DNA of 64,000 bases from Candidatus Omnitrophota bacterium (GCA_003598025.1 QZKH01000005.1:4682-68681), one strand, 5' to 3'. Numbered from the stretch's first letter, positions 1-63,200 are shown. The notes: generated by a model from the letters alone, not told the origin. Made by a program: numbers and translations.

Positions 1-260
1 GTCCAGCCAGAGCAAAAGCCACAAGGAAAAGTTTTTATTTGGCCGCAAAAGAAAGCGTTTTCCATATACGCTTTAAGTATTTTTGGCATATCAACCCGTT
101 TATTAATTATCGGTGTTACTTTTTCCAGCATGCCTTTTATTGCTCTATTGGCTTCAGTAAGCTTGATACTCAATACTATATATTATGTACGTTTAATCCG
201 TATTTATAACAAAGAATATACAAATTTAAATAGAAATTCCAGTAGCGATAGCGGGAAATC
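1..260 (+). other. Hydrophobic helix segment (AFSIYALSIFGISTRLLIIGVTFSSMPFIALLASVSLILNTIYYV), probably the C-terminal transmembrane end of the preceding module, followed by the first SSSP linker at about 262-275
   Basis: Direct translation of frame 1. Two consecutive hydrophobic stretches of about 20 aa are followed by KSSSPISNSPFENNSPSLPP. Confidence 0.4.
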
Positions 261-33200: not shown

Positions 33201-36200
33201 AGCAGAAGTACGCAGCTTACAAAAACTTTCTAAAGAAGAATTGAGTTTTCTGCTGAAAGAGAAAATAGAACCCTGGCAGTTAACCAGGTGGGAGCATGAA
33301 GCTGCGCCACCTCCGGCATTTCTATTAGAGCCTTTAGCTGAGATGTTAGGGGTTTCGGCAGGATATATCAGGGAGGGGGAAGGTCAAATCGACCGGGAAG
33401 CGTTAGAGGAAAGAGGCAGGCGCCATTTAAGGATTAAGAAAGTAAGAGAGTTATTCGGGTTGACTCTTGCAGAAGCAAGCCGTATTGCTAAATATAGAAA
33501 TTACGCATATTTAATGCGTATTGAGGGGGGCGGTACCTTCCCGCGTTACAGCGTTCTATTGGACATGATCAATAAAATATTCGACAGAGAAGTAAGCGCC
33601 CAGTATTTGATGATCGGGACTGATGAGCCTGATTGGTCAATGGTGGGGGTTGTTGATGGCTGGGCAGATAGGATTACTAATGTAATGAAAAAACTTGGTT
33701 TCTCGCAGGATAGCATTACTCGGGAAACCGGAATTGATGAAGGAAGATTTCGCAGGATTATAAGGGGGATAACCAGGCCGGCGATAACAGAGTTAAGAGA
33801 TTGCGCAACCATTATGGGCATTACACCAACATATCTAATAAAAGGTACAGATGAGCCTGACTGGCATTACGGCAGGAGAATAAAAAGCCTGATGGATAAC
33901 TATGGATGGAGTGCTCCAAGGCTTGCGAGAAGACTTAAGGTCAGCTCAACAACGGTTTATGCCTGGATTCATGAAAAATTCCCGCCTAGCTTCGGGCAGG
34001 CAGTTATTATCGCCGGATTATTTGGAGTAAGACCGGAATATATATTAACCGGAATAAACCCTCCGGAAATAAAAGTTAAAGAAGGCTATGGTGATAGGAT
34101 TGCCAAGGCAAGAAAAAAACAGGGATATTCTCAAGCATATGTCGCCTTGTTAGCCGATATGAATCATCTTACATTCTTTAAGCTTGAAAATGAAAGTTAT
34201 GGTATGTCCGTACGAATAGGTCTACTTAAGCGAGTCGCAAAGGCATTGGGCGTAGACAGCCAATATGTTTGCCTTGATTTAAACCCTCCTGATTGGGATA
34301 AATTCGGCGTAACAAGTGGCTATGGTAAAAGGATCAGAAAGGTGAGGGAAGCGCTAAGGATGACTATGCCTGATTTAGCCGCAGAAATGGATGTTTCAGC
34401 AGAGAAGATCTTAAAATGGGAACAGGAGCGCCTTGAATGGCCTAACCATAATGTGATCGCTGAGTTTGCCCAAGCACTCTATGTGCCTGTAGAATACTTG
34501 AAAAACGGTTCCTGGAGAAGCGCATATAAGGATTTTGGTATAAGCCCAGGATGGGGGGAGAGGATCCGTTCCTATAGAGAATTAAAAGGCTTATCAGAAG
34601 ATGATTTGGCCGATAGGCTGGGAGTAGATGTTTATACAGTACAGAGATGGGAATCAGAAAAAGTTAATACCCCATACTCCAGGTTTAAAGCAATGGCAGA
34701 GATATTTGGCATACCCGTAATTCTTCTTATTCATCACACTGCCCATAAAAAGAATTTTCAGTCAGTTTCTGACAAAATATTATTACTAAAACTATACGGA
34801 ATAAGATTGAATTCCGCTCTCTTAAATACGAGCAACGATGAAATAAATGAGTATATTGATAAACAAGTCGTAGATTTATTAAATGACGGTAATGGCAGGC
34901 TCGAGAGCATGATACTTGGGCCCCTGTTTAAAGAGCCGTCAGTTGATATCTTCAGCGATCGTTCAGTGGCTTACCGTGTACTTATGCGCTCTGTCGCCGT
35001 TGATCCGGGGTTGATTCATGTGAAAATTAAAGATTTGCTTAGCGGCAGGAATGGACGGCTTTTAACCGGGAGAAAGCTTTTTTTCTTTCTTGGGCAACCA
35101 GCGGGAGAAGCTTTCTTGGCTGCTTTGAATTCACGCGGATACTCCTTGGACAGTGATTTGGATAGAATAAAATCCGAACACAAGGCATCATCGCCATTAT
35201 CGAGGGTTGCAGGGACCGCAAAATTCAGAAGAACATTGACAAAGTTGGAATTACCGGCAATCGTTGCTATTGACGGTTCAAGCAGTGTCGGTAAGACTAC
35301 CTTTTCCCGTAGTATAGAAAGAGGAGAAATAGACCTCGGCATAAATAACAGAATTTTAGTGATACACGGAGATGTGTGGGATAGCATAGCAAGAGATGCT
35401 TTATACTACAGGTTGGATTATCCGATAGCGAAACAATATAGGCCTATAGAAGAGTTATATAGAGCAGGATTGATAGATGATCGTACCCAAAGAGGGGATT
35501 TATTCCGCATGTTTTTTGATGCAGGGTATGAACAATTATTTTCCGTTCATAATATTGTTATTTTTGAAGTGGCAGGGGCAGTGAGCTTAATAAATGATGC
35601 TCTTTTGCATCATCCATTTGTATTCTTGCCCGCGAGGATTTTAACTTTTCGCATGAGCAAGGATGATAACGGGCGCAGGAGCATTGTCAAGAACGGCAGC
35701 TTTGAATCTATTGCTTACCGAAGGCTGAAGAAATACGGCCCTGCCGGGCTTGAGATATTAAAGCATAAGCGGTGTATAAGCTCGCCTTTAGATGCAGAAC
35801 CTGCGTTAAGAAAAAATAAGCATCATAGCCATGAACATAGTCTTTATCATACACATATACATACTGACCACTTGGGTAGATTGCGTTTTATCTTTGCTAT
35901 AACTTTTGGTTTTGCCTGGGTTGAGCTTTTTACAGGGATTATTTCAGGTTCGGTAGCCCTAACCGGAGATGCAGGGCATATGTTTACGGATGCGATGGGC
36001 ATAGGCGCAGCTTTGTTTGCCCATTGGGCAAATGCCTGGAGCAAGCCTCCTCCGAAAAAATACAATGGCAATACAATTTACGAAGTATCCGCAGCATTCC
36101 TAAATGGCATCACAGTACTAACAGCCTCATTTTATATCGGATACGAAGGTATCCGCAGGCTTCTGGGGCACCCGGCAGACCACCTTACCTACGAAATATT

Positions 36201-39200
36201 CATAATCGCTACATTAGGCTTATTAGTGAATACGGTTTCTGCAATAACCTTGCATTCCGGAAGAAATCATAATCTCAATTTTAGGGGAGCTTATAAACAT
36301 ATTGTCGCAGATATTGCCGGCTCTTTAGCTGCGATGATTGGAGGTCTGTTTATTTGGATTTCTGGAACATATAAAGTAGATGCCATATTGGGGATGGCGG
36401 TTGGCATCTGGATTTTTTATGGTTCTCTCGGGCTTTTAAGAGAATCTTTATCCGCAATAAGATATGTAAATAGTAAAGAGGAGGAAGAAAGTGTATCAAG
36501 CCCTGCTAACTCCGATAGCAGGTTAAGAGATGACAAGCTGAGTTCTCTCAGCAATATAATAAAAGAAGGCCGTATATTTGAAACCGACAGGATTTGGAGT
36601 AGCCTGCCTGCAACTTCCAATGATTCTATAAGGCAGGTTATGTTGCTGCAAGAAGATAGCCAGGGCGGTATTACAGTTACAGCCAGGAACGAAGATGGGC
36701 TTTTATTAGGTTATGTTGTAGGTGTTCCGGAAACAGTAAGATGGGGCGGCAGCTATGGCAGGGATAATGTTTTTTATCTTTATTCCTTATCTGTCCGCGA
36801 TGATTATTCGGGAAGAGGTATAGGGACTGCTTTATTAGGGCATATTTTAAGCCTTGCCAAAGACAAAGGGTTTTTAACAGCTACCGGAACTGTTGAGGGC
36901 AAGAACAGATTAGAGAGCGGAGCCGAACATATATTAACCGATAAATTTGGCGCCCGCCAGGTTGATTCAAAAGGCCTAAATCCTTTAGAAAGATACTGTT
37001 CATTAATGCTTGGTTTGCCGCAACAAGATGATGTTGAGTTGGAGATATCGCTTGCCAAAGACTCGCAGTGGTGGAGTTTAGTCAGTTCGCCATTAGGCAA
37101 ATTAGGAAGCAGGAGAAACCCAGTTGCTTTAACTTCGGGAAAAAGCGCCGTAGTAATTCTTCCTACTTATGAAGCAGACCATAATAAATATTTTTATAGG
37201 CCGGGGCATTCGGTTGCGATTGAGATTATCTCTCCTCTGGAAAGAGCAGGCTATAAAGTTAATACTATTGAAGTAAGTTCTTTAAATGAAGGGCTTGCGG
37301 CAATTCTAGCGCATAGTAAAGATGAGATCGATTTGTTTGTTTTGGCTATACATAGGTCTTTTGTCACCCCTGAGTTAATATATCAATTTCTAGACATTGC
37401 CAAGACAAGATTGAAGGATAAACCTACGGTAATTCTTTATGTTTGCAAAGGAGAAAAAATTGCCAAAGCCGCCAGGAGCATCCTTCATGAAAGCCGTATT
37501 TATTACGATAGAGGTAATATTAACGGGGTGGAGTTGTATTTTTCTCAGGATGGCATGGTTAATGATGTGGTCTTTAATAACACGCGTTCAAGGACGGCAT
37601 TGATTGTATTTGTAACATTGGTGCCTGTTGGCATTTTTGTCTGGGCCCTGGTTAAAGGAAGCCTGGTTTGGATGTTGTTATCAATAATAGGGGGCATTTC
37701 ATTTGCTGTGGCCTTGTGTGCCTGGGGGATGTCAGCCAGTATCAATTACGAAGCTCTGGATGCTCATATCCTTGAACACCAGCGCAAAAATGATGACCAG
37801 AGTAGCTCCCCTGTTACCGCAGCAGCTATGTTTAAAGCAGCGCAGAATTTCCCGGATTTTAGGGAAAGATTTGGATACATAGGTAATGCGTTGATTTATC
37901 TTGTTAATGAAGCCATTAAAAGAGGGTTGATTAAAAGCCAAGCGTCTACTGCACATTTTAAAGTTGCTGAGCGTTTAAAAAATGGTGTTATTGCCTGGAA
38001 TATCCCTGAGCAAGAGATAAGCAGGATTCTTTTTGAGAAAGATTATTTTAATCCTAACTATATAATCAGCCAGATCGTACTTCATGAGTCGCAACCAACA
38101 GAAGCGCAGGGGCTGCAAGCCCAGATAGATACTTTTATCAGTCAGCTGTCCATGGTAGAGCCGGTTAATAGGTTAAGAGGAGTGATAGCGAAAGTTAAGG
38201 CTATTGTATTTGGAGACGGGCATGCTAAATTGCAGGGATTTCGTAATGCCCTTGAGAGAATAAGGTATATTAAAAAAGGCGATTCCTGGCAAGGCGATTC
38301 CTGGCAAGGCGATTCCTGGCAAGATGATTCCTGCTTGGGTGAAAGAACACTTATCCAACTCGGAGATGTTATCTGGGGTGGGATTGGAGAAGAAGCTATC
38401 CAGATAGATTTTTACCATTACCTTAAATCTCTGTCTAATCAGGCACAAAATACTGGGGGTAAGGTGGTAAGAATTCTAGGAAACCACGAGTATGATTTAT
38501 ACGTAGCATATACTAGGGGAGAGGTAAAAGCCCCGGAATTTATTGGTCTTGCCAGAGAAGTAGAGGAAGATATTTTATCAGGGCAAGCTTTGCTGGCAAG
38601 CGAATGTAACGGAAGAATTTTTGTTCATGGCGGAGTATTACCTTATGTGTTAGTGGAGGCTTTTAGGCAAATGAATCCGCATCTTTTGAATCCAGAGATA
38701 GAGTTGAATGAGGCTGCTGAGTATATAGTTAGTAATTTAAGTCAGCATACGGCAAAAAGCATCGCTAAAAAACTGAATGAACTATTGCGTATAAGTGTTG
38801 AGAAGAGAAAACCGAATGCATTGGTGGGATTAGTATTACGTACTCCTTTTGATAACCTCGCTTCAGTGAGTGAAAAATTTCTCATTCCTCAGGTAGTAGG
38901 CCATATCCATCTTAAATCTATAAAACAGAGCCCAGGTGGCAAAGTCATCGATGTGGCTTTATCGGAGACAGATAATTTCTTCGGCCGGTCATATGAGGCG
39001 ATTGGATTTGATGGAGCGGATTGGGGGGTTGTTTCGTTAAACTCTATAAGAGAAGAAAACAGTGTGTTAGTCAGCTCTCCAGTTTATTCAGGAGATCTAG
39101 ATAGCTCTACCTTATCTTTACGTGCCATGGGTGTAACGGCGCTTATTTGGGCTATGGGCCAATTTTTATTTAATACCAAATACGGGATAATGAAAATGCC

Positions 39201-42200
39201 TGGCATTGCTTCATCTCCGGTAAAAAATGTTTCTGCCATAGATGATAATGCAAGAAAGTATTTTTCATTACATATCGATAACGAAGGCAGGATCACCCGG
39301 GCCTTAAGGATTATAAGCGGGATATTTCTGATTTCTATGTTGGCAACCGGGATGATTGATTTAACCATTCATACCAGCAGAACATTTATTCTGCATTATA
39401 GCCTTGTTTTTGGTTTTGCAATGTCCTTAATAGCATATTTTATAGCCAAAAAATCAGATTCGAAACGCATATCCAGAGAGTTGATTGCTCAGAATACAAT
39501 CAATCTTTCAAGTATTGAGGTAAAGAGACTGATTGGAAGGGCCTTAAGGGATAAATTTGACGGAAGTATGAGTTTTGTGATGAATGCAAGTTATATCCAC
39601 CCGTATCCTGTTGAGAGTATTCAAAGCAAGATAAAAAGCCTGGCTTCTTTTATCAGGTATTTTATAAGTCTTACAGAATTCAGGCTTTTCTGCCAGGAAT
39701 ATGAAGGAGAGAGCGATGACTATGGGATCATCCATCTCCCCGATATAACATTGGGAGCTAATGAATCTCAATTCCTTCCGTCGGGAAGGCTGAAGAAAAT
39801 AGAGATTGCTGATGCAACTTGGCCTGAAGTCAAAAGCGAATGGATTGTATTGTTACGAACTGAAGTTTTACCGCGGCTTAAACAGATATGGCTGAGTTTG
39901 CAAAGAATCCAAGGGCTGCCTGAGAATAGCGAACAGATCTGCCACAATATAAGCCTGATAAACTCGTTAAGCCAGGAAGTCGGCGATGAGATAGGAAGAT
40001 TAGCCAGGAGGTATTCAGAGATAAGAAGGCGCCAAGGAGCGAGTTCTCCGATACCCGGATGGGATAGGGTAATAAGGATAGCCAGGGCAATAGCTCCATC
40101 TTTATCTTCTAAGCCTGCTATTGTTGTCAGCAGGCAGGAAGAAGAACCCATGGAGGAACCAAGTGGAGAAGTGCAGAACCCGGAACCGCCGCCTACCATA
40201 ATAAATAAGGAAGAAGAGAGAAGAAGGATAGCCACGAAAGTAGCCAAAATTGTGTTTGGGCTTATAGATAATTGTTGGTTTGAAATAGCGGTTTTAGACC
40301 AGTCAGGCCCGTGCGCAGCGCTAATGAATTACAACGCAGCCGGTTTTCAGCAGATGGATGTATGGTCTAATGAAAACGACTGGACAATAAAAATTGCAAA
40401 AGAAGTTCAGTTGAGAAACAAAACAAAGTCAACTGAGATCAGGTCTTTTGAGATGGATTGGAATTCGGCTGATAAAACTCTGACAATTACTAATACTTTC
40501 GGAAGGAAACAAAAGAAAACTTTTAAGTTTTCCAAAGACCCTCTTTGCAGGCTGGATTTCTCTGCGCGTAAGAATAAGCTAAGTGTGGTTTTTTCAGCGC
40601 AAGCAGCCAGGGCTATAAATAATTCAGGCTTAAGCCTATCGGCTTTATACAGCGAAAGCGATAATTTCGGTTTAGAAATCAAAACTTCCAATAGCTCTAA
40701 CCATAATACAGCCAGCAGCCCTCTAGATAATAATTCAAATGCGGGCAGCATGCCAAACAGTAGATTTTATTATTATCCAGTTACAATACGTCCGGTGGAT
40801 AAATACAATAAATTTAATCCTGCCAAGGTTAAAGTTACATTTATTTCTGGAGAAGCTTATCTTGAAGTTATAGAAAGGGGCGATTTAAGCATAGAAGGGG
40901 AAGCGATATTAAAGCAAAGATTGCGGGATATGCTTGTGTATAGGCCAAATGCTCCTCCTGCGGAAATATTGATTACCCCGGAGACTTCTATTATTGAGAG
41001 GCGCAGAGTGATTGCAGAGTACGATTCTGAAACAAGGGAAATACTATTACAACCATTATTTGTGGATAAAGATGAAGAAATCATTAGTTTATTTAATATT
41101 ACCCCGCCGTACGCTCCTAAGCTACCCGATATCCTATATTTTACTAGTACAGGTTTTGATAATCTTAGGATGGAGACTATAAATTTGTTCAATGTCAACC
41201 CTTTGCAGGCCAGCCAGTTTCTAATGTCTGTCTTAAGAACCGAGTTTGGTTATCTTATTGGTTTAGATTGGGGAGAGGGTGAAATTGATACTTTGGGGTG
41301 GTTACAATCACCAAATAATTTAGATTACCTGGAAGTTAGCATAACGATACTCAGAACTCGTAGAGAAGTATTGGCTGTTGGGGATTGGTTAAATAAATTA
41401 TTGCTAATGCGTTTATCCCAAGAAGCAATCGGATTATTCCCGGTTTTTCCGATACAAGAACGAGGATCTCATATTGTTAATGGCAGCATATTAATGGGGC
41501 CAGTGGAGGGCGTTGATTATATAGATGATAATTGGACAGGCCTATTATGGGATACAGATAAGCGGATAAAACCCGAAGAATTAGATAGGATGATAACCGA
41601 AGTACTTGGCGTATTTGGTTTTAATATGTTGCAGGAAGATAATAGATTAGTGCAATCTATAACCAGGATAAGGTCGTATTTTACAGAGCGGATTAACTGT
41701 TTAGATAATGCTTTAATGTTGAGCTTATCGGAGATTGCCAATGCTTTACAGGATCCTGAGAGATTCGTAGATGTTCTACTAATAGAATTTGTATTTTTTC
41801 CATTATTTCTTCAGAGGGAGAAAATCGGAGATTGGGAGCATTATTGTCGAGATTTTGGTACTAGGCTAGATTCAGGATCTTGCTATGAGCTTTCTATCCA
41901 GAGAACAGCATTCTCGGTCTATAGCCAATTTTTCCATTCCCGAGAACAATTAGGTGGCTTTGTTACTGATTTTGCTCAAAGCATTAGAAATGATCCTAAT
42001 TTAAGAATGAAGCTGGATAGTATAGATAAATTTACTGATTATGTAGCAGGGTTTGCGGTTTTGCCGAAATGTATCGTGTTGGATTGCGACGGTGTATTAT
42101 GGAGTGGGACGATAGATGAAGACGGTATTTATGGTGTAAAAGTAACCCCAGCCCATCAGGCTTTTCAGAGGAAAATACTTGAATTGAAAGAGAGCGGAAT

Positions 42201-45200
42201 GCTACTCGCCATCAATAGTAAAAACGACGCCAACGACGTAGAGGCCGTTTTAGATAATCATCAGGATATGGTTTTAAGAAGGAAGGATTTTGTAAATATA
42301 AAAGCTAATTGGCAAGATAAGGCTACAAATTTAAGAGCAATAGCCGAGGAATTAGGTATCGGGATTGACAGTTTGGTATTTTTTGACGATAGTCCTCAAG
42401 AACGCGGCTTGGTAAGAAGTCTATGCCCGCAAGTAGTTACTCCTGAGCTTACTGAAGATGTTGCAGAATGGGTGAATATATTAAGGGAATTAAATCTAAC
42501 CCCTACCCAGGCGCTTACTAACGAAGATAGGATAAGGACTGAACTTTATGCTGCGCAAAGACAAAGAGAGGATGCCAGGGTGCAGGCGCGTAATCTGGAA
42601 GAATACTTGATGTCATTAGGTATAAATATAAGGATATATGAAGGATTGGGTAATTTGCCTTATCTTCAGAGGTTATCTCAGCTTACTCATAAAACAAATC
42701 GTTTCAATTTAACTAATAGAAGATATAGCGATAGTCAAATTAGGGTGATGATTACTAATCCCGCGTACCGAGTATTTTCTCTTGAATATTCTGATAGGTA
42801 TTTAGATAAGAAAGGGTTTAAAGACCTGGTAGGTTTAATTATTGTTCATAATGGGTATATTGATACATTCTGTTTGAGCTGTAGATCTCTTGATCTAGGG
42901 GTTGAGAGAGCGTTTTTAAGTAATGTTGTCGGCCGCCTGAAAGAAAGTGGACAGAAAAGCCTAAGAGGTATATATATAAAAACAGAAAGAAACCTTTCTG
43001 TTAGAGACTTGTATCCAAATTTAGGCTTTACTCAGCATGCCTCCGGTGCTTATGGTAATGAAAGCACTCTTGCTGAATTTTGGACAGCAAATCTTCAAGA
43101 GATTGTTTTAGAGAAGCCAGCGCATATTTCAGTTTTGGGAGATAGCCAAGATATAGAGCATCGTGGCGATGAAATGGAATATTGTCAACAGGAAGGGAGA
43201 ACAATCTATAGCTATTTTATCGGAGAAAAATGGGGAATAGAAAGATTGAGGCAACGCGATTACTATTTAGTAGATGTAGAGTTTCTTTATTCAGATACGA
43301 GAATAGGCGGTTATAGTTTTGCCATAGAACCTACCGGTGTGTCTATCCATTACTGTTATTTTAATGGTGCGGGAAATTTGGGAAAGGAATTTATCGCAAG
43401 GGGTTTGTTAAGGGGCATAGCGATCAGTAGGATGCTCGGGTATGATACTAAACATATGGCAAGTTATTACGCTTGGGGTATATCTGAGAGAATGATAAAA
43501 GAAATGAGTGTAGAAATAGGAGGAGATACAGAAGATCCGTGGATGGTAGCCAGAGGCAAATTATTTATCGAATTAGGTTTTGCTGAAGATGGAATAGATG
43601 ACATTGTAGATTTTACCAAAACACACGATTTGATCCTTGGAAAACGTAGGATAGCCGTAGATGTTTTTGAGGCCTCGCTAAGAGACAATTTTTTAAGATG
43701 GTTTTATGAAGATAGAATTAAAAAGGTTGAAGGGGAAAGTGCCTGGGAATCTTTTAATACACCTGAGAACTGGGAAGAAGTAACAAAAATAGTAGCTTTA
43801 CGAGAAAGAGCGATTTGGCAAGCAATTGCTGTTGAATTAGCAAAAACGGGACATGAGGCATTTGCAGATCTTGAGCAAGTCATTGAAAAGGGCCTTCAGG
43901 TAACTCTTCCGATATTGATAGGAGGCATGATTTCCAGCAGTCCGCTTTCTAGCTTTGAACCTAGCAAGGGTGTTAATTATCTGAATAGAGCTACCAGTTC
44001 TCCATTGAGGTACTATCCGGCTGTGATTTCAGTGTGTGAAAAGACTCAAAATATATACGAGGATAACATCGTGAATCTTCAAAGGTACATTGAGCGTGCT
44101 TTTAGTGACTTAGGTTTTTCAAATCAAGATTCAAAAAGCATTGTTTTCTTTGATGCCAATTTGAACTATCTTGCTGAAGAGATTGAAGAGGGCATAGCTA
44201 TAAATTTATCCTTAGCAAGTGTTGCCCCGCCGTTTAATCCGAGCCAGGAGGAATCCTGTGATTTTCAAATCTTGATTAGTGATGTTCTCCGTCGCATGTT
44301 GCATGGCAATAGTCATATTCAGGTATCTTCATCAGATAGAAATAACAGTAAGGAGCCCTACGCTTATTTTATAGACAATTTAGATGAATTTATTCATGTG
44401 TGTAAAGCTGGTAGGAATATCGGGCTGGTTGATTTAGGCTACATACGAGATACTGTCAGAGGAATTTTATCAACGGTATTTCTTGAAGGATCACAAAAGA
44501 GAAATGTCCTGGCCCAAGATATCGGTGATTTAGTTGAATTGATTTACGATAATATAGAATGGATACCTTTTTTAACTGAAGAATTGAGAAATGCTGTTGC
44601 TTTAGATTTGGTTTTACGCCCCGCTATATTGATAATAAAGAATTTAATTTCTCGGGGTACAGCTGAAAATGCAACGCAGTTTAGGCGCGTTTTAAAATCC
44701 GCTTTCACAGTTGCTTTGTTGGGTCGCAATATAAAAAAACGAGGCTATTCTGATGAAGCTTTTATGTCAGGAATGATTTTAATAAGTAATGGTAAGCTAG
44801 CTTCGTGTTTAGATGATTTAGACCAAGTGCTTCAGTTGGAAGGCAGGTTATTATGCCGTATAGTAGAAAATGTTTCAGTAGCCTTAGAAAATATCTATAT
44901 GTATGCAACTTGTTTGGATTTGGTAGAACGTTTAGAAGAAGCCAGGGAATATCGCAGAACGAATACAAATGGTGGATATGAATTCGGAGACGTTCAATAC
45001 TTCCCGATAGGTACAGATTATGGACCGGATGAAACTGTCCAAAATTTCTTGATAACTATTCCAAGGTTTAGGCGCGGAATTATGCCTTTAACAATAAGTC
45101 TAAAATTGCTGGATTTGTTTGATGGAGATGTATCGGATACTATGCGAGAAATCTTAAGGCTGAATGAATTGGAAGATTCTTCTTTAGATATCGAGTTTAA

Positions 45201-48200
45201 TCGTTTAGGCTTGGGAACAACAAAAGATGGGCCGAGAAGAGACCAATTATATAAATGTCTTGTTCTTGATTGCGATGGGTTACTTTGGGCGGGGATTGTT
45301 GGAGAAGACGGCTTAACAGGTATTCAGGTAACTGCATCACATCAGGATTTTCAGAGAAAAGTTATGGAGTTAAAAAATAGAGGAATTTTGTTAGCGATAA
45401 ATAGTAAGAATAATCCCGAAGATATAGGCAGCGTATTAGATAATCACCCAAGCATGATCCTAAGGAGAGAACATTTTGCTGTAGTAAAAGCAAATTGGCA
45501 GGACAAGGCTGAGAATTTGAGAGAGATCGCCCAGGAGTTAAATATAGGCACAGAGAATTTAGTATTTCTGGATGATTCTTTGCGCGAAAGGGTATTAGTA
45601 AGAATGCATTGCCCAGAGGTTTTTACTCCGGACTTGCCCGATAAAGTTAAAGACTGGGGAAATTTTTTGTTAAGTTTAGGATTTTCCGAGCAGGAGCCGT
45701 TAACAGCTGAGGATTCAAGAAGGACTGAGATGTACTCGGAGCATAGATTAAGATTAGCTTCGAGAGTACAAAGTATTTCTTTAGAAGATTATTACCTTTC
45801 GTTGGGGATGAAGATAGTAATCAGGGAAGGCAAAGCGAATTTGAATCATACCTTACGCCTGGCCCAGTTATCACAAAGAACCAATCAATTTAATCTTACT
45901 TTTCGTAGGTATAATGAGTGTGAAATAAGAGATAAGGTGATGCATACTGATGACTATAATGTTTTCAGCTTGGAGTATTCGGATAGATTCGGCTCAGCTG
46001 GAATAGTAGGTTTAATTATTGTTTATGTAGGAAGCGGCAAGCCCGAGATACTCGAATTCTGCTTAAGTTGTAGGGCTATTGGTTTGACATTAGAAGAAGC
46101 ATTTATGGGTTATGTGATTAACAGAATAAAGCAGGCAGGTTCGCAGGAGTTGACCGGAGAATATAGGATTGGGCCTAGAAACAATTTAGTGAGTACTATG
46201 TACCAGAGGCTCGGATTTAGCAAACTTGATAATGGACGTTGGAGTATTAATTTGAATGAGACTGCTATTGTTATTCCAGAGTATATTGCTGTTACCAGTC
46301 TAGAGGAAGAGGCAGTTGATGAACCTTCCGAGGAGTTAATAGAATTCACTATGAATAATCCGCCACGTACTTATATAACAGATTGTTGGAGAAACAATGG
46401 ACCATATCGTTGGGGAGAAATCGGAGGAGTAGTTTTATTTGAGGATAGCTCTACTGATTATCGTCAAGATGATTCAGGGTTTGTTTGTGCATATACTGAA
46501 TATACATTTTATTATTATGATCTCTTGGATTTAGAAAATCTTAGGTGCGAATGGTCGCCTTATTTGTTATGGGAAGCATATAAGGAGGGGATTAAGAGGA
46601 ATAAGAACGGAAGCAAGGAAAATGTAACCAGCAGCCCAATAATTCCCAGGTCCGTTTCTCTTGCCCCTCAGAGACCGTTTCTGCCACTGACCAGAGAAGT
46701 GCCCCCTGGAGATTTTATAGTTCCGTTGAAGCGTTTAATCGTTGAACCATTGATCGGAGACAATAAATCATCTTTAGCAGCTAATGGCCTAGATAATTTC
46801 CTTATTTCGGTTTTGCACCATGGGCCGCCACTTGGACAATTTATACCTGCCGTACAAACAAGCTCTCCGTTAAAATTAGACATTAATTTAATAATCCACT
46901 CTTTAATATTTTCTTCAGGAATATATTTGGCAGTTGGCAATCAAGGTGTTTCTCAAATAATCGGCGTTTTCCTTGCTTTAGTACCAAGTTTTTCTTATTT
47001 CAGCATAAAAGATATTCAGATGAACGACGAAGAGATGCCTGAATCAAAATTCGCGTTCAGGATGATAACACGGGCAATTATTGTGCTGGCCGCATTATAT
47101 CTATGCGTAGCTATCAGCAATAAGATAAACGATTTCAATACAGAAAGAATCAAGGTAGAGCAAAATTCAGGCGTAAATCAAAGCAGAAATTCAAGTTCAC
47201 CCGTTTCCTGGCGCAGTATAATTCTATTGACCGCATTACTTATTACAGTAAATTTCGATTGCGGAAATATTTCTAAAGAAGCTGCTGAGATTTCTTCCTA
47301 TCATGAAAGTTCTGTTCAGGAAACAGAGAAACCTGACCTGATGGATTTAGTCGAACGTTACGGTATCCAGCTGCATGAAAACGAAGATGCATTCGTTAAA
47401 TTTAACGTTTGCATGGATTCTCTATTCAAATACGCCTCGCAGGATATCGTTGATACATTAAACAGGCTTCGCAGAGAAAAAAGAATCGCACTTTTTATAA
47501 GCTCCAATATGAGTGGTTTTTACAATGGCTTGCTTAATCTGGGCAATGCTACAGGAGAAAGGGGAATAAGCAATCAATACGGTATTACCCTAAGGGTTGA
47601 AACAGCGGAAGGGAAAGAAATATATTTAACCATCTTTGATAAAGATATTTTCGCTGAGGCCGAGTTAACTTCAGCGACGGTTTTCCATGAAATGGCCGGG
47701 CATGTCGCCAGAACCGAGCTGGAAGGTGAATTGCCGACGATTGCGCTAAACGAAATCAGGGCCTACCAGACGGAGATGGGGCTTATTAAGGAATTACGGG
47801 ATGATATAAGGCAAACCTATAGCCGAGATGCGGAGTCTAACCCGCGAATAAAAAGTGAATTAGAGGCAGGGATTAAAAGATTCGACTCATTAATTAACGC
47901 TGCTGCGGAAAGAATCCAGGATTATAAGAATAGCGCATCTTCGCCTTTGTCTTGTGAAGAGGAAGAAGAAATAGAATTTCAGTATTATAAAAAACTCGGG
48001 TTAATTGATGAATTAGAGGACGGCAGGATTATTTTAATGTATGATTGGGAGCCAGGTAAACCGATCGATGCAATAAGATTCAGGATAACCCTTGATAGTA
48101 AGCACGATGCAGTAGCGGAAGCCCGTCATCTGGCAGCAGGCGTACTTACATTGGAACAAATGCAGACAATCCCTATGCTATGCGCCTTTCTTATGAATTT

Positions 48201-54200: not shown

Positions 54201-57200
54201 TGATATAGCTAACGCAGCAGTAGCCAGGCGTGTTACCGCAGAGGCTGTAGAAGAAATAGCCAGGAATATCAAAGATGCAGAGGCTATCCTTAGGCAATAT
54301 AGCCTTGCCTGGGTAGAGGCATTAAGAGAAAACTTGCTGGAATTACGCGTGCATGCGCAGGATTTGTTGAATAACAAGCATCCGGATTATCTCAGCTATC
54401 CGGTTTTTCAGGAAACAGTTCTTAACGCAGGCCAGATATGTGAACAGATTAGCGGCTTCCGGGATGCAAACAACACTTTCCTTATAGAACTCTCGAGATT
54501 AAACAGTGATATAGTGGGTCAGATAGAGGGTACCCATGAAGAAGTGCCAATAGGCTTTATCGAAGAATTCGCCAGGCTGCAGGATCATACAAGGAATACA
54601 CTTCTGGAATTTTCATCGCAGGAGGATTGGCAGGATGCACTTACCAAGCATGGCGAGCTGTTGGTAGGACTTCAGAGAATGAACTCTTTTGAGAGGGCTA
54701 TAAGGAATTTAAGGAGTGAGATTGATTTTTTAAGGCAGTTACAAGGGTGGCATTTTTCTCCGGAAGTTGAAGATCAAGAGCGGGAATCCAGAGGTAGGCA
54801 GACCTCTGCCCTGGAAGAGGCAGAGTCTGTTATAAATGGTATTGCTACAGGCTATGCATCCCCTTATTTGCTTGGAGCAAAGTTAGAAGAGTTTGTAGAA
54901 AATTTACCGCGTATCAATGAGTTGATAGATGAAGCGGTGTGCGGTTTGATGGGTATTATAAAAGCAAAGAGGGATTTTATAATACCTCAGTTTAGAGTCA
55001 TACATGAGATGATCAGGGCGCTTAGGGCATGGATAGTTGAAGATTTATCTCCAAGATTTTCCGGAGACCAGGCAACATTAACTAGGAGCAAGAGGGTATT
55101 TGATGATCTGGAATCTTTGTTTACCTCTCTGTTTGCTAATCTAGACCAGTGGGGAAATGACTTGGGGCAAACGGAGTACGCAAGAGTAAATAATGAGTTG
55201 ATTCAGTTAGTCGCTTCATTCGACGGACCCATGGATGGGTTGCATGCGGCTCTATTTAACTTGGTAGATTCAGAAAATAATACTATCGGGGATAAACTTC
55301 TAAGGACATGCAGGGGCATAGTAACCCATTATGTAACCGGGCATCAACTTCAGGGAGTGATGCGGCAGATACCGTATAATATTATTTTTGACGTGTCTGG
55401 CGACGCATATGGATACCCTGTGGAAGTCAGAAGAATAAGAGTTGTCGCTGGCCGTTCGTATGATACGCTTTTAAGCGACTTAGTCGGCAGGGATGACCAG
55501 GTCAGGGCTGTGCAAGATGAATATAAAACCTCTATGAAGAAATGGCAGAATTTTAAGGGAAGAGGAGAATACCCTTCGGCTGAATTTGCTTTTATGATAA
55601 AAGATGCCTTTAGCTATTATATCCGGCTGATACAGGATACATCTGCTCGGCCGCTTAGGCCTGCTTCAGAAGTATTACAGGCTTATTATCAGAAGACTTT
55701 TGCTCAAGTGAAGCGTGTTTTTGATGCTTTACCTCTTGAACAAAATATTCTGGCTCCAGGTGAATATCGTGTTGGCGGAGGCATGCGTAATGAAGAGATG
55801 AAAGAAAAAGGGTTAGTAATACTCTTGTCTATGTTGAGAGATATTTCTGCAACTATAGAAGATATGCCTGACCCGGTAAGGATTAATTTTGAGTCGGAAG
55901 ATGAAGCTCTGGCGTTTTTAAGGGTAAGCTTAGAAGACCTGGAAGGAGATGCCCCAGTTTCTACTACCTCCTCCAGCCCCCTGAAGCCAGGACCGTTTTT
56001 GTCATTGACCACAGAAGTGTCTTCGGATGCCACTTTATCTCCGTTGGATGGGAGGCTAAGTATTTCCCGCAGAGCATTCTTTGTGACTGCTGCAGTAGCT
56101 TCGGTTACAGCCGCATTTCTAGGCGGCAGAAGAGCAGAACATCTTGCGCAGGAGAAGGCGCAGAAAATGCCGGGCAGCTTACGCCTGTTTAATGAATTTT
56201 CCGCGCAACGGCAGACCGTTCTCTTTATTCACGGCGGACTGGGTAGTGATTGTTCTTGCTTTGAGCTTTTTGTTGAACGCTTCAAGGATACGTTTAATCT
56301 CGCGGGATTTGATTATGACGATAGCCTGCCATTGGAAGCGGTATCCCGGAGATTCTCCGGGGAGGTTTTGAATGTGCGCCGCGCGCCGTCAATACCCGGT
56401 GGCTTAATCATCATCGCATACTCTTGCGGCACTACCATAGTCAGGGACGCAGTGCTTAACCGGAATCCCGGCAGAAAGTTATTTAAGGAAGATGCGGTTA
56501 TAGAGATTGCTCCTATTTTAGGCGGTTCTGCCAAAGCGCTGGGAGCTGGTTCAGGTTTGAAACAAGGCGTGTTGCATATTGATGAGTTATTTGGAGGGAT
56601 ATTCGGTATCAAAGGCAGCCCGGAATTAGCCAAGACTACAGATCCGAGCTGGTTTATCCAACAGGCATTATTTAACGAAGAGGCCTGTGATACTTTTGCT
56701 GTAAGCATTGGTAAGCATATTATTATCAGGGATGAGAATGATTCGCATGCCCCTTTTAACTTAGAGGATTCTCCTAGCAAAAGGGAGTTCTTGCGTTTAT
56801 ATGAGAACGGCCTGACCCGCGCGCCGGTTGTGATTAACTTACAATCCGTTGACGGAAAGAGTATGCATAGCAAAATGCTGAAGCAAAAGCCGGTGGTAGA
56901 CTTGGTTGAAGAGTTATTAATTCCTAAAGCTCAAGCTGTGCCTTTGTCCGTAAAGAATTCATCGAGTTCTCCTGTGCAGAAGGCGGGCGCGTTGTTACGT
57001 AGTTATTCACACGTAATGTTCTTTATGGATAAAGACGGCGTAGTGACTGATAATAATAGTTTCATCACGGAAGATATGTTGAGAGCGATATTTGAACTCT
57101 TAATTAAAGGTGCTTATATTTATATTATCACCGGAGGTACATTTGAAAACAGTATTCATAATGTCATTGAGCCCCTTGAAGAATTCGCCAATACTTTAGC

Positions 57201-60200
57201 CCGACCGGAGCTCTTAAATCATTTAGTTTATTTTGTTATGAATGGCAACTATGAGATTAGTTGGCACGATGGAATTCGTTCAGAGCGTTTCTGCGGAAAA
57301 GCGATTAGCGCTGGCGATGCAGGTAAATTAGCAAAGGCTTTTTCAATAGCTTTTATTGAAAAAGCCTCTAAGAAATTATCGCTACACGATAAAGGAATAT
57401 CGCAGGCAATTTATGACGCAGAAAATTTTGAGCAAGTAGCGACTCTTCTTTTAAGGTTCGCCGGTTTTTATCCGGCGGAAATTGGTCACGTGCGGGTTGA
57501 GGCAGGGCAGATACAAGATAAGCGTGCTGTGCGTACCTGTTCTATGGTGCTTGAGTTGAACAAATCCCCAGAACTTCAATCAAGCCGCTCGTTACAAAAT
57601 ATTGATCTTATGCGTGAAATACAAGCACGAGCTAAGGATTTGTTACCGCCTCAATTAATCTCCAGCGGACATATGTTCTTGGGGCCGACGTTTTTATCAT
57701 TCCAAACCTTATTAAAAGAGGATGTGTTGGCGGCTGTAACTTCTCGCTTTCCAACGGAAGCACGAATCTTCCGGGTTGGCGCCGGTGATACTGAGGTTGA
57801 TCTTGCTTTCCTCTCTAAGATTGCTGAAACACAAGGGTATGCGTATTTTGTTGGTGAGAGTATAGGAAAGCTGCCCAAAGGCGTAGTTGCTACTCGCTTG
57901 CGTGGCCCACCTGCACATTTGTTAGAACTCCGCGCTCTCGGCCGGGCGATTAGATTACAAGCTAGCAAAGAGATTGAAGTTGATTTAAGTGTATTATCTC
58001 GCCACCAAAGAATTACCTCAAGTTCTCCTATCCTTGGAAAGAATTTCTATGCTTCACCAAGTTCATCACGATTGCCGAATACAGAATACGCAGAAGTATA
58101 TAAAGGGAACGGTTCTATTTCTTTCGATGGCGCCAGCTCGCCCCTCGGAGAAACATCTCGGGGCGAAGCCTCGCCCGTTTCGCCAGCAAAGCTGGCGAAT
58201 GAGGCGGGCTCGCCGGTAGGGCCTATGTTTTTTCTGCTCAGAAGAAAGATTAGAAGATTGCAGCGTTCATTAGAACAGGTAATCGCCATTATCAAAAGAG
58301 AAGAGCAAAAAGCAGGGCAGCTGGATTTAGTGAAGATATATATCGTGGGAAGCTTTGCCAATGGAAAGTTAAAGAGGACTTCTGACCTTGATCTTGTATT
58401 TGAACCTACGCAACGAATGTTTGGGATATTCGGTAATATCTGGTGGGCATATTTAGATGAGTGGACAGAAGAAATCGAAAGCTCTATCAAGGAGATCGAT
58501 GTTGCCGGGTATCATGCACCGTATGGACGGTACACTCTTGTGGACAGGAATCGCTGTGCGGAGGATCACACGTATTTAGAGGGTCTTTATCGGGATTCGT
58601 TTCGCTCGCCTACAGGCGTCAACGCACAAGAACAAGGAGCCCCTATCTCTAAAAAGAGATACTCAAGGACAGAGGTATACGCTGGGGTATTAGCGGCAAG
58701 ATTATCTTTTGGCAGCAGAGTTATTGATTTAGGTTGCGGTAAAGGCAAACTCGGGTCTTTATTATCGGCAGATAGCGGGATTTCTTACGTAGGGATTGAC
58801 TTGAAACTAAGTAGGTTGCTCCGTGCAAAAAAACAAACTCCAACGGGTAAATTAATTTGTGCGAATGCCTCTTATTTGCCTATCGAATGCAACTCAGCAG
58901 ATGCAGTTGTGTGTATGCATATGATCGAACACTTGGATGAATCAGAAAGACGCCAGCTGTATTCTGAAATAAAACGAATAATAAACAAGGGTGGATATGT
59001 ATTAATTGAAACACCTATACAATCTCCCGGATCCAGATGTTTAAAATTCTTGAAGATTTTGTTCGGGGCAATCCCGCGAAGATCTCTTGATGAGACCGGT
59101 TTTTCAAAGTCGCATCGAGTTTGGTTTACCGAAGAACAATTGTCAAAGGAATTAGAAGAGAATGTATCCCCCTATGAAATAGTCGATCAGAATTATTATG
59201 TGTTTCATACAGTTATTTTTCCGCGAGGATGGTTTTTTGAGTCGGTGCAGAAGGTTCTAGACAGAATTGATAAGGGCAGCCTCATTAAGAGAAGAATCGC
59301 ATTAAGCAAATACGTTTTACTTAGAAACATTGGTTCGAAGGACGGTGAGCTAGGCGAACAACAAACGAAAGCGCGTCGAACCACCAGCTCGCCGGTGCGT
59401 GAAGATAAAGTTGAGACCCAAGTTATTCGGGAACTGAAACCAAAACTTAATTTTATTGAATCGAATCCGTTTTTGCTAGCTTTTGTAGGGGTAATTTTTG
59501 GAGCATTAGGAACGGTCTTCGGAAAAATTCTGGTAACACAGGCACCACCTGAGATTTATTTGATTTTCTTCTATCCTTTTGCATATCTATTGGTTTCAGT
59601 TATGTTCGCTTTATTTGGAAAAGAAAACAGAGGAATGCTGCAAAAGGCATTCCCTGAAAAATATTCTTGGCAAAGATTGGATAGCCGACGCTGGAAGCTC
59701 GCAATCATCTTAAATTCTCTTTTGTTATGCGTAGTAACCCCTATCTGTTATTTTGTCGGCTTAAAATTAATCTCGCCAATAAGCGCAAGCGTTATTTCCC
59801 AGCTTATGCTTATTTTCACCATAATCTTGTGTAACTTATTTCTAAAAGAGAGGATAGGTTTATCAAAAGCTTCGGGGGCTATGCTGGTTGTAGCTAGCGT
59901 GCTCTTTGTGATTATTGAGCCCGAGATTAATTCGCCTTCTGGAATATCCCTATTTAGCTTGTTTAATTCATTTAAGAACGTGGGCACCATACTAATTTTG
60001 TTAAGTTGTCTTTCACTTAGTATCCAGCAGGTTATCGGGCGCCTAATCGTTACTACGCTTAAGAAAGAGGATAGTAATATTCAGATTTCACTAATGAAAA
60101 TAGGTTATCTTTTCGGCATGATATTTATGCTGCCTTTCTTTTTGTTGTGGAACTTTATATGGAATAATCTCGATTTTGTTTCTTTATGGAGTAGCTACTC

Positions 60201-63200
60201 GGAGGCATTAACGCATTATCTATTTGCGCTGATTCTGGTTAATGTTGTACTTTTTACTACACATTGGTATATAAGATACAAAATACAAGGGGTTAGCCGG
60301 TTCCATCAGTCCACTTTTGCTACAGTGTTAGCGACCTCTCCCGGTTTTGTCTGTTTTTTTTCCTACCTTATATTAAATAATGTTGCGATTTCAGGTTTAG
60401 TGTTATTAGCTGTTGGTACGGTTTTCTTGGGAGTGATTCTATCTTCGGATCCGTTTTTAATACTAAAGGCAAAGCAAAGCTATAATTATCAAATCCTGCA
60501 ATGGGCAGGGCGAAAGAAGACGATAACCGAAAGAGTCCAGTTGATTTATAATGCGCGCGTGGAGACTAAAACCAAGCAAATGAAACTCACGGATTATATT
60601 GAAAGAGAATTGATTTCTCGTTTGCCAGCCGGGACAAAATTAAAATCCATAGTAGTACGCGACAGTTTCCTTTGGTCTCCTCAACCGGATGATATTGATA
60701 TTTATGTGGTAGTTGAGGAACCGACGGATGTGGCTATGCCCCACAATAACATTGCTTTTAAACAGGCAAAAGAAGAAACTGCCCCGAAGCTAGCATTTTC
60801 GTTAGGCGCTTCACTCGAAAGTATCAATAAGATAGACCTCTGGTGCGTGGGTTTAAAACATCTTCAGGGCAACCCTTTACAGCGGGCTTGGGTATTAAGA
60901 CGAGGAGTTACTATATATGGGGATAATTTATTTGACAAGTTTAATGATGATCCGGTGTATAGATACTGGGTTGTAGAGAGGGCCTTAGAGCAGGTAGATG
61001 AGGAGATAAAAAATGGAGATGTGCGTAAAATAATTCATAGGTTAATGTTGGCCGTATTTTCTTTAGGCGAGATCGATAATTCATATCGGCAGGAAGCAAG
61101 GGGTATAGTCACAGGCTTATGCCAACAAATATACAACATGCCGGTTGATTCGAAGGCAAGAGAATGTCTTTTTGCTGAAATGCAGGTTTGTTATGAAAAG
61201 GTTAGGGATAGATTTAATCATCTGGAAGATGCGGAAAGGGTAAATAGCGCAAGGTTAGCAAAGGAATTTACCACTTTATGGAGACGATGGAAAAAGAAAG
61301 GCTTCCCCCCGGGAGAATTTGACGCGGATGGTTCTTTTACGGCGCAGGCGGAGCGCACTCTATCAATATATCCTAATAGCAAGCAATGGGTGCTTGATAT
61401 GATACGTTGTGATATTAATAATTTCCCAGTTGAAGAGATTGAACAGCTGCGGCTTGATGCTAAAGTGAAGCGTTTGTTATCTTCTCCAGTAGCATTATTT
61501 TATAATAAAGGGGATGGTTCTATTTTTTCTAACGGCGCCAGCTCGCCCGTAAACAGCAGATTTATTGATTTATTAAGCCATATTAATGATCCGCGCCAGT
61601 ATGACGTTAACCTCCTTGATCAGGAACATGTTCTCTCAAGCAGCGCTTTCATCCGCGAAGGCGCCAAAGGGTTAAAAGGAAATGCGCTGCTTTTGGGGTT
61701 GGGTAATGCCCATGAGTATACCATAGAGGTGTTAGCTGATCTTTATAGACAATTTGATAAGCTTATCATTGTAGATTTGGATGAAAACACTATCCAGCGG
61801 ACGCTGGGGAGGCTTGATAAGCATCTGAGGCGAAGCGGCGTATCGCTGGATCAGGCAAAAATCGAGATTAGAATAATGGATTTAAGCGGAGTGATAGGGG
61901 CTATGGCGATGCTTGTGGACGATATAATCGCGCGCGAAAGGAACCTCCAGGTAATCCAGCATCAAATTCTGCGTCTTCTTAGTGAACCACCGGAAGCGTT
62001 TGAGGTGTCTTGTGCAAAGGCCGCTGGTGCCTCTTATGTTGTTTCTTCCCTTGTTGCGACACAGCCTGCCAAGTTACTCGATGCATATATTGTAAGCATG
62101 ATTGAAGAGAAATTTGGATTAGGCTCTGCAGATTCTTTTGTCCTTTCAGAACAGTTTAGGGTCAGAAAAGCAAAATTTGAATCTCAGCTTCATCAGAAAC
62201 ACGTGCAAGATTTGATGCGGTGGGTAGATAAGCACGGATGCATTTATTTTTCCGATTCGTTTGCTGAAACTAATTTAAGGTATAGCCCGGGAAATATACA
62301 GCCTCTCAGTATTGTTAGCCCTGTGCTTACCTTAATCGATGATAGTGTGGTCAATACATTGCAAAGGCTGTGTGAAACAGAAAAATCAGGAGAATGGTGG
62401 TACCTTTACGATTCTGATCTTATCAGATTTGGAATTGGAAGCGCATTTTATGTGAAGGCGTGGATTTTTAAGCCCAGGGATATAGGAGAAGCTCTTGAAA
62501 CTAATCCGGAGGTTGCTCCCCGCGTTTCCTCGCCCCTGGCGCCAGCATTGTTGCGCATAGGCACTCGTTGGGTTCCGCTTGCTGCCGCAAGTTCTCCGCT
62601 GGCAAGAGATGGCGACTTGAGTTTTAAAATTGAAACTGATGATTACGCAGTTGTATTTGATACCCTTTATTCACTAAAGAACCGCGGCAATATTATTGAA
62701 TTTTCTCAAATTCAGGATGCTTTTGTAAGTCAAAAACCCCAGAAAAAAACAAATTCCGTAAGAATTGTGAATAGGGTCCTTAAATCATTCATCCAGGCCG
62801 GTCTCGCCCAAGAAGTCGGCTTTGGGTATAGCGCGACTATAACAGATGGGGATGAAATCAAGGGTATCCTTAGCGACATTGAGCATCAATCAAAGTTATC
62901 AGAGGAAAAGCTTAAAGAGATAGCATCCGGTTGGTTTCTTGATGTGGGTGAAATAACCCTTTATCACTCTGCTACGTTAGAAAAAATACTTAGTATCATC
63001 GAATTCGGATTTTATGCTCTCCCTGGTGAATTTACGCTTACTTCTGAAAGCCATCGCTTCGGTAAAGTCTTTCGTTTTCGTAAAGGAAAAATTCTCATTG
63101 TATTTAATGTCCCTGTAGGGATGATAGATTTTTCTCATCATTCCTATTATCTGAAAGGTTTCGCGCTTAAATATCCAAGGGCTAAAACTCCAATTATCCC

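Follow-up and report, generated by a model that had tools for sequence, protein, structure and literature searches.

Can an export signal serve any purpose thousands of codons inside a giant open reading frame (ORF) and, if so, how? This question is raised by a 64,000-nucleotide stretch of Candidatus Omnitrophota DNA (GCA_003598025.1, QZKH01000005.1:4682-68681; hereafter the window), in which a segment resembling a twin-arginine translocation (Tat) signal stands directly before an alpha/beta-hydrolase domain, deep within a single reading frame. Positions are counted from the first letter of the window, and all features described within it lie on the plus strand. Frame +1 contains no stop codon from nt 1 to 63999 (21,333 codons), whereas the other five frames carry 695-2,044 stops each. 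Since 64 kb are free of stops in this frame only, the window lies inside one giant gene, a multi-enzyme ORF of the Omnitrophota kind, and is an inner slice of it that runs off both ends.

The segment in question, DGRLSISRRAFFVTAAVASVTAAFLGGRRAEHLA, is translated from nt 56047-56148 (aa 18683-18716), as the initial annotation had claimed. Direct reading gives the twin-arginine motif S-R-R-A-F-F at aa 18689-18694 (nt 56065-56082), with the two arginines (RR) at aa 18690-18691 (nt 56068-56073). The RR is thus at least 18,689 codons from the ORF start, a lower bound because the ORF extends beyond the 5' end of the window. Tat signals follow the consensus S/T-R-R-x-F-L-K. Compared with it, S-R-R-A-F-F-V (aa 18689-18695) is exact at S, R, R and F, with L replaced by F and K by V. 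Hydropathy scans delimit a hydrophobic (h-) region, AFFVTAAVASVTAAFLGG (aa 18692-18709, nt 56074-56127), which follows the RR motif directly and consists of 18 uncharged residues, rich in Ala, Val, Thr and Ser and of moderate hydrophobicity (mean Kyte-Doolittle value 1.81). Two further arginines come directly after it (aa 18710-18711, nt 56128-56133), forming a basic c-region of the 'Sec-avoidance' type. In a strict search a Tat-like pattern was found once in the ORF, with 0.15 expected from shuffled ORFs; by itself the RR motif is weakly significant and only suggestive, and it gains weight through its position and through homology.

The module behind the segment was modelled with AlphaFold2 (AF2; mean predicted local distance difference test score, pLDDT, 79; predicted template modelling score 0.74). 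In the model, residues 1-33 of the module are disordered, residues 33-64 form a helix that includes the h-region, and residues 70-316 form an alpha/beta core. The AF2 fold, structural matches and conservation of the catalytic triad agree in identifying an esterase/lipase-like alpha/beta-hydrolase at aa 18727-18973 (nt 56179-56919), so that the claim of such a domain directly after the signal holds. Foldseek returned 599 PDB matches at E <= 1e-3, and the top matches among those listed are esterases, lipases and related alpha/beta-hydrolases. No Pfam family matched the hydrolase at E <= 0.01. The catalytic residues are Ser18808 (nt 56422-56424), Asp18914 (nt 56740-56742) and His18956 (nt 56866-56868), all three invariant in the 13 homologues of our alignment A2, and the serine lies in a nucleophile elbow of the small-x-Ser-x-small type (A-Y-S18808-C-G). 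Akin to the secreted esterase BlEst2 of Bacillus licheniformis (6wpx/6wpy), the module combines this fold with an A-x-S-x-G elbow and a Ser-Asp-His triad, although identity to BlEst2 is only about 14% and the profile match to 6wpx is weak (E = 0.0044).

An exhaustive phmmer search over 1.8 billion representatives yielded 34 homologues of the hydrolase module; word-index searches with the module and with alignment A2 returned nothing. Standalone homologues (260-420 aa) carry N-terminal Sec signals, lipoprotein signals or anchors, and the family is therefore normally extracytoplasmic. Many other homologues form part of long multi-module proteins, with a signal-like segment placed shortly before the hydrolase domain. 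At this place the complete gene P0001 (4,957 aa) encodes TMARRIFLGLAAGAGALAAL, with RR-I-F-L (RR-x-F-L), P0004 (950 aa) has TTRRTFLQMLAMSIAALFL, with RR-T-F-L, P0009 (1,172 aa) has ARRDFLKKALAMGAAGSLGPLL, and P0032 (3,934 aa, Omnitrophota) has ISRRAALQ...VTGC, in which RR is combined with a lipobox-like Cys. Lipoboxes precede the hydrolase in P0012 and P0013 (618 and 714 aa), and Sec-type segments in P0018 and P0021 (4,890 and 1,709 aa), in all four cases without RR. The motif variants found among homologues are RR-I-F-L, RR-T-F-L and RR-D-F-L-K, and alignment A2 places the RR-x-F motifs of P0001, P0004 and the window in register. Against the curated Tat-signal profile TIGR01409 (cut-off 16.7 bits), the P0004 segment scores 18.1 bits and that of P0009 scores 26 bits, so that both pass; the P0001 segment matches neither TIGR01409 nor PF10518.

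The best homologue is P0001 (39% identity, 6e-56), and the block that it shares with the window comprises aa 18663-18992 only. Identity in the signal region is about 42% (counted on aligned residues), equal to that of the catalytic domain. The P0001 module is host-like in its GC content at third codon positions (GC3; 0.636 vs 0.665 for the gene), and it keeps the RR and a 15-residue uncharged helix. Embedded signals of this type can therefore persist long enough for composition to be ameliorated, which argues against a purely decaying fossil. Signal loss also occurs, since about 7 of 17 embedded homologues have no signal-like segment upstream of the domain. RR-type signals are present in five embedded copies (window, P0001, P0004, P0009 and P0032), and RR in one of the seven standalone homologues examined closely, P0002, where charged residues and a strongly hydrophobic anchor follow rather than a Tat-type h-region. 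In this small sample RR signals favour embedded copies, a suggestive pattern and the one expected if a folded, released module needs Tat rather than Sec. We consider it very probable that the RR segment is a genuine export signal, inherited with a captured esterase cassette.

The limits of this cassette coincide with a short motif that recurs along the ORF. S-S-P-[I/L/V] occurs 58 times where 1.1 copies are expected (maximum 4 in 200 shuffles), making the SSP junction of the initial annotation a far stronger feature than had been stated. Its sites span nt 262 to 63466 with a median spacing of about 290 aa, and S, A, V or T stands directly before the motif in 54 of the 58 copies. The upstream junction of the studied module, S-S-S-P-L (aa 18657-18661, nt 55969-55983; SSSP at aa 18657-18660), is present in the string TSSSPLKPGPFLSLTTEV; homology to P0001 starts two residues later, and the next 33 residues have pLDDT values below 50. 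Homology to P0001 ends at the downstream junction, S-S-S-P-V (aa 18988-18992, nt 56962-56976), and the last 12 residues of the module likewise fall below 50, so that both junctions lie in linkers predicted by AF2 to be disordered. An extended junction element, PGPFLSLTTEV (aa 18663-18673, nt 55987-56019), is found at the upstream border, and its PGP is also kept in P0001. The distance from junction to signal, previously given as 20 residues, had to be revised, the RR lying about 30 residues past the Pro of SSSP.

When Ala is admitted at the last position, 59 SSP[ILVA] sites are obtained. These comprise 41 distinct 9-mers and use TCN and AGY serine codons in the same proportions as the ORF as a whole, and the constraint is therefore on the protein and not on the DNA. 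A recombination scar or DNA repeat as the origin of the junctions was ruled out on the same grounds. None of the 59 sites falls within a recognised domain (3,405 domain residues, P < 5e-5), and domains typically start 29-69 residues past a site (GH77 37, amylase 34, GH130 35, CDF 35, EamA 29). The motif is a candidate site of processing or recognition.

The cassette is also a compositional island. From aa 18658 to 18988 (nt 55972-56964) it has a GC content of 0.478 and a GC3 of 0.480, both the highest of any module of 100 aa or more within the ORF (50 such modules; GC3 z = +3.1 against a module mean of 0.382, sd 0.031). Among all 331-codon spans of the ORF, GC3 peaks in the one that begins at aa 18641. 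GC3 is 0.31-0.41 on both sides of the cassette and falls from about 0.50 to about 0.35 just past the downstream junction. As the strongest GC3 outlier, the cassette therefore looks like a foreign, in-frame acquisition, and its capture as a whole gene, later than its neighbours and from a donor of higher GC, is supported.

Immediately downstream, aa 18989-19795 (nt 56965-59385) are occupied by modules without a hydrophobic helix. The first is HAD-like, a label that rests on the sequence FFMDKDGVV, no Pfam family matching that module; it is followed by a nucleotidyltransferase (NTP_transf_2, 7.8e-5) and an S-adenosylmethionine (SAM)-dependent methyltransferase (Methyltransf_11, 1.9e-16). Next comes an EamA/DMT-type transporter (aa 19818-20146, nt 59452-60438; Pfam EamA 7.5e-17) with ten hydrophobic peaks, corresponding to about ten helices, of which helix 1 starts 22 residues past an SSP site. 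A GNAT module lies after the transporter. Between aa 18710 and 19818, some 1,100 residues, no Kyte-Doolittle peak reaches 1.5. If the RR segment were an N-in/C-out helix of an uncut chain, SAM- and acetyl-CoA-dependent enzymes would therefore be placed outside the cell and the ten-helix transporter would be inverted. Tat could not carry a passenger made up of the downstream enzyme modules and a ten-helix transporter. Because no return helix precedes the cytoplasm-type modules and EamA, we infer that Tat-type use of the segment implies cutting. This argument is local and confined to the helix-free aa 18710-19818. Topology parity of the whole chain, predicted from hydropathy, was set aside as too uncertain, with helix counts ambiguous in the modules at aa 12362-12601 and 15621-15731.

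Our favoured, though tentative, reading is that the giant product is cut at SSP and the released esterase module exported by the Tat route; the cutting, its timing before export and the route itself we infer. The product would be cut at or close to its SSP junctions, freeing a precursor of about 330 residues with the RR about 30 residues from the new N-terminus. Already folded, this precursor would be exported via Tat or, alternatively, become anchored in the membrane as an exo-enzyme of N-in/C-out orientation. Modules of the cytoplasm type next to it (HAD-like, nucleotidyltransferase/methyltransferase, GNAT) would remain inside, and the transporter modules would insert by themselves. We favour cutting near SSP because it reconciles an exported family, Tat-type features, cytoplasm-type modules downstream and a strict junction motif. 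As encoded, the RR is far outside the first 35 or so residues of the chain, where a signal at a free N-terminus would carry it; only after a cut at SSSP (aa 18657-18660) would it come to lie there, at about residue 30. Liberation by proteolysis, one of two outcomes envisaged by the initial annotation, is plausible and offers the best resolution of the local topology problem. A broader and more doubtful proposal is that the ORF encodes a bacterial polyprotein, in which sixty or more gene-sized modules would be freed at [S/A]-S-S-P-[L/I/V], each separately targeted, with new ones captured as in-frame cassettes bringing their own signals. Tat would then serve the folded esterase and Sec/YidC the signal-anchored and polytopic modules, and cytoplasmic enzymes would need no signal.

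A number of observations weigh against cutting followed by Tat export. The segment had been called a textbook Tat signal, and its S-R-R-A-F-F motif and uncharged, Ala/Val-rich h-region justify this in part, but it is missed by both curated Tat-signal profiles, PF10518 and TIGR01409, and the label is therefore somewhat overstated. A signal-peptidase site of the A-x-A type is likewise missing, with no clear small-x-small sequence after the h-region (EHLA, QEKA). No protease domain was recognised in the window by Pfam, nor in its HEMAGH-containing module (described below) by a PDB sequence search. Proline at P1' would block classical signal peptidase I, and the SSP motif, with Pro as its third residue, does not correspond to any known cleavage site of signal peptidases or viral proteases. 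In P0001 the SSP motif is entirely absent despite the internal RR signal, so that retention of the signal does not need SSP processing. Furthermore, P0004, P0009, P0012 and P0021 carry an N-terminal signal in addition to the internal one. Such double signals are difficult to reconcile with an uncut chain whose second signal simply works from inside to outside, and they affect all models. The intact state of the window signal could partly be owed to too little time for decay; as the capture looks recent, that intactness is weaker evidence of function than retention in P0001. Finally, scans of the genome and metagenome contig collections found no relative of the window.

The chain may instead stay uncut, with the RR segment as one more helix of a polytopic giant membrane protein, be it a signal-anchor, a stop-transfer segment or a Rieske-like internal Tat helix, and with the RR as a positive-inside or TatC-binding determinant. 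We regard this as unlikely, though it has real precedents. Internal hydrophobic segments routinely serve as signal-anchors. Dual Sec/Tat substrates, actinobacterial Rieske proteins among them, have an RR motif before a weakly hydrophobic last helix, with positive charges behind that helix (PMC5449189, PMC3471235), and Tat signals at internal positions are thus established. A role of C-terminal positive charges in Tat-handled helices has been described, and the complete triad (RR motif, low hydrophobicity, C-terminal positive charges; PMC5449189) is present in the window segment. The premise of the initial annotation that signals work only at a free N-terminus was therefore too strong. Like these substrates, the window has its RR away from the N-terminus, then a weakly hydrophobic helix, positive charges and a globular domain. 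Unlike them, it continues for at least 2,600 residues, including a ten-helix transporter, whereas their Tat helix is the last one and the passenger runs to the C-terminus; in addition, its passenger is a cofactor-less serine hydrolase, and the chain upstream comprises at least 18,689 residues instead of two to four helices.

Further support for an uncut chain comes from published giant Omnitrophota proteins, which have tens to hundreds of helices (10.64898/2026.06.07.730766), and from P0001, where helices at aa 2594 and 2617 follow the hydrolase, making a periplasmic loop domain possible in a protein without SSP. The charges flanking the window helix are balanced, +2 on each side, so that an N-out/C-in orientation with a cytoplasmic methyltransferase is conceivable. 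The homologues, however, put the hydrolase outside, and behind an N-in/C-out helix 1,100 residues would pass without a return helix before the ten helices of EamA. The Tat-dependent helices of PMC5449189 are last helices with a single globular domain behind them, and an uncut chain leaves a strict four-residue motif at 58 module borders unexplained.

It is improbable, in our judgement, that the segment is a functionless relic, belonging to a cassette captured so recently that its signal has not yet decayed, and with a weak hydrophobicity that a giant protein tolerates. The module being the strongest GC/GC3 outlier of the ORF accords with a relic, as do the missed Tat profiles, the missing A-x-A site and the embedded homologues without a segment (about 7 of 17), which make loss possible. 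Against a relic stands the ameliorated P0001, where RR-x-F and an uncharged helix are kept, together with several further embedded copies that retain the segment, two of which pass TIGR01409. We estimate that, at the composition of the ORF, 18 consecutive residues without charge would arise with a probability of about 0.6%, and quick erosion of the stretch would be expected if it were neutral. The second outcome envisaged earlier, a recent capture with a fossil signal, is thus borne out as to capture, by the SSP-to-SSP homology and the top GC3 outlier, and disfavoured as to a decayed fossil, by P0001 and the copies passing TIGR01409.

A separately made hydrolase with a free N-terminal Tat signal could in principle arise from an internal translation start, for example at the TTG at nt 56044, which would give MDGRLSISRRAFF... 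at its N-terminus. This is very improbable. The window does have this in-frame TTG eight codons before the RR, and P0001 has an ATG one codon before it (TMARRIF), but no Shine-Dalgarno-like sequence lies upstream of either, and the C-terminal side would stay attached. Met is not enriched past SSP sites (median distance 46, vs 36 at random positions). Internal starts as a general mechanism were rejected, given this lack of Met enrichment past SSP and of any clear Shine-Dalgarno pattern. A chance Tat-like match, for which the length of the protein provides an expectation of 0.15 strict-pattern matches per shuffled ORF, is effectively refuted by the homologue alignment, since the segment occupies the very position of the signals in homologues, is matched position by position to the RR-x-F-L of P0001 and P0004 and directly precedes a domain of an otherwise exported family. 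The observation of a Tat-like segment deep within the ORF is confirmed, and its earlier interpretation partly supported.

In six of eight membrane or signal modules of the ORF, the first helix starts 7-36 residues past an SSP motif. The CDF module (aa 11962-12152, nt 35884-36456; Pfam Cation_efflux 3e-32) has about six helices, helix 1 starting 36 residues past SSP. The initial annotation was right about the presence of an embedded CDF and an embedded multi-helix domain, the latter being EamA, but the two are not in themselves contradictory in topology: with even helix counts (about six and about ten), both are topologically neutral. A second signal of N-terminal type, SSSP-VSWR-SIILLTALLITVNFDCG (aa 15731-15755, nt 47191-47265), has a hydrophobic core that starts seven residues past the junction; the signal proper, WRSIILLTALLITVNFDCG, occupies nt 47203-47265, three residues past an SSSP. 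It was said to precede a HEMAGH protease module, and the signal is indeed there, whereas the protease label could not be verified by a Pfam or PDB match. HEMAGH (aa 15896-15901, nt 47686-47703) is an HExxGH and not an HExxH sequence, presumably comparable to that of DPP III (M49), and lies in a module without a protease-family match. The only true HExxH in the window, HEIMH (aa 7816-7820, nt 23446-23460), also lies in a module without such a match.

The remainder of the ORF is equally heterogeneous. Pfam families along it include HATPase_c (two), alpha-amylase, a full-length GH77 4-alpha-glucanotransferase (7e-95), PHP, HD, four Xre-type HTH domains, Cation_efflux, GNAT (two), NTP_transf_2 with Methyltransf_11, and EamA. 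These units are mutually unrelated and mostly of the size of whole proteins, and the bulk of the chain has no Pfam match. With more than 10,000 codons, many unrelated families and transmembrane helices, the ORF has the properties by which giant proteins are recognised. The four HTH DNA-binding domains stand in tandem in a single module (aa 11223-11573, nt 33667-34719), adjoined by the CDF transporter and GNAT modules. Two paralogous FkbH-like/HAD-IIIC modules (aa 14023-14382, nt 42067-43146; aa 15078-15457, nt 45232-46371) sit within two modules of about 1,000 aa each; their best homologues are Omnitrophota multi-module proteins and actinomycete polyketide synthases. The nearest homologues of window modules belong to Candidatus Omnitrophota metagenome-assembled genomes (MAGs), the annotation of P0036, P0032 and P0018, and one homologue is from Elusimicrobiota.

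The SSP motif was also found in a different organism. Contig Ga0373628_0006670 (L002; JGI 3300035659, GC 47%) carries the 3' end of that organism's giant gene at positions 71-12845, with 16 [A/G/S/V]-S-S-P-[A/V/L/I/M/T] motifs. The gene is called as two overlapping ORFs of 2,737 and 1,543 aa, perhaps owing to a frameshift. An FkbH-like module is common to this gene and the window (44% identity), and a PilZ gene comes next, an arrangement on record for giant genes. The motif is absent from P0001, P0017, P0018, P0032 and the ORFs of a second metagenome locus, L003 (JGI 3300009538), and is therefore lineage-specific rather than universal among giant and multi-enzyme proteins.

Certain longer contexts recur at the junctions of the window. 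PFL[SP]LT[RT]EV, whose longer form ends in (PP), stands beside SSP three times, with starts at aa 11028, 15559 and 18665; the extended elements cover aa 11028-11050, 15559-15575 and 18663-18673 (nt ~33082, 46675 and 55987). Two further contexts occur twice each, G[N/D]GSI..[D/N]GASSP (aa 19379, aa 20514) and AEPSL...SSP (aa 3103, aa 7586). In the 10-nt bin 10-20 nt upstream of SSP sites, 12 Shine-Dalgarno-like words (AGGAG, GGAGG, GAGGT, AAGGA) were counted against about 3.5 expected, an excess that is probably a by-product of Lys/Glu/Gly/Arg codons.

Some of the long homologues have peculiarities of their own. P0001, P0004, P0009, P0017 and P0021 resemble one another in their N-terminal leader, in which [N/Q]D[I/Y]AW(A) or FTVVGPA comes after a hydrophobic core, and the combination of this leader with a second internal signal before the hydrolase amounts to a topology paradox. 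A different border element, YPL[A/L]VPQ[E/D]xQ, is present in four copies in P0036 (Candidatus Omnitrophota MAG, partial, 2,098 aa), each preceding a repeated domain with a zinc-protease-like HELI[ST]H motif; it may be another lineage's arrangement of junction and protease. At L003 (878-9700), a 2,940-aa ORF adjoining the P0004 gene and without an SSP motif joins NAPRTase, isochorismatase, NUDIX, CN_hydrolase and NAD synthase, and looks like a fused NAD-salvage pathway.

Neither giant Omnitrophota genes nor internal Tat signals are new in themselves. Like the giant proteins of West-Roberts et al. (2023; 10.1101/2023.11.21.568195), the window ORF is very long and combines unrelated Pfam families with scattered transmembrane helices, and its architecture matches the 'multi-enzyme metabolic cluster' class of 10.64898/2026.06.07.730766. 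By its own statement the first of these papers has no information on cleavage points, and in the second, internal signal-peptide calls were suppressed as chunking artefacts. Here, in contrast, an internal signal was traced back to a gene family whose products are exported, and a junction motif was defined; term searches of the two papers turned up neither a junction motif nor cleavage points, and a literature search for Omnitrophota together with twin-arginine export found nothing. What is new within the literature searched is the combination of giant gene and internal signal, the behaviour of the module as a cassette, its standing as a compositional island and, most importantly, the junction motif at the protein level.

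Viral polyproteins (Flaviviridae and similar) are likewise single long products with gene-sized modules, internal signal or anchor sequences and short border motifs. The window differs in being bacterial, in being at least ten times longer, and in that its cutting is only putative. It is an explicitly open question (10.1101/2023.11.21.568195; 10.64898/2026.06.07.730766) whether giant bacterial proteins, which reach 147,155 residues, function as single chains or as many cut proteins. An internal signal conserved in several embedded copies, together with a strict junction motif, argues that at least some modules act as separate, separately targeted proteins, and the two features make the question of processing testable. 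These results suggest that internal signal-peptide calls in giant proteins carry biological information and that giant genes grow by capture of whole-gene cassettes. If the polyprotein reading is true, the SSP motif would be the missing cleavage map for one lineage of giant Omnitrophota-type proteins.

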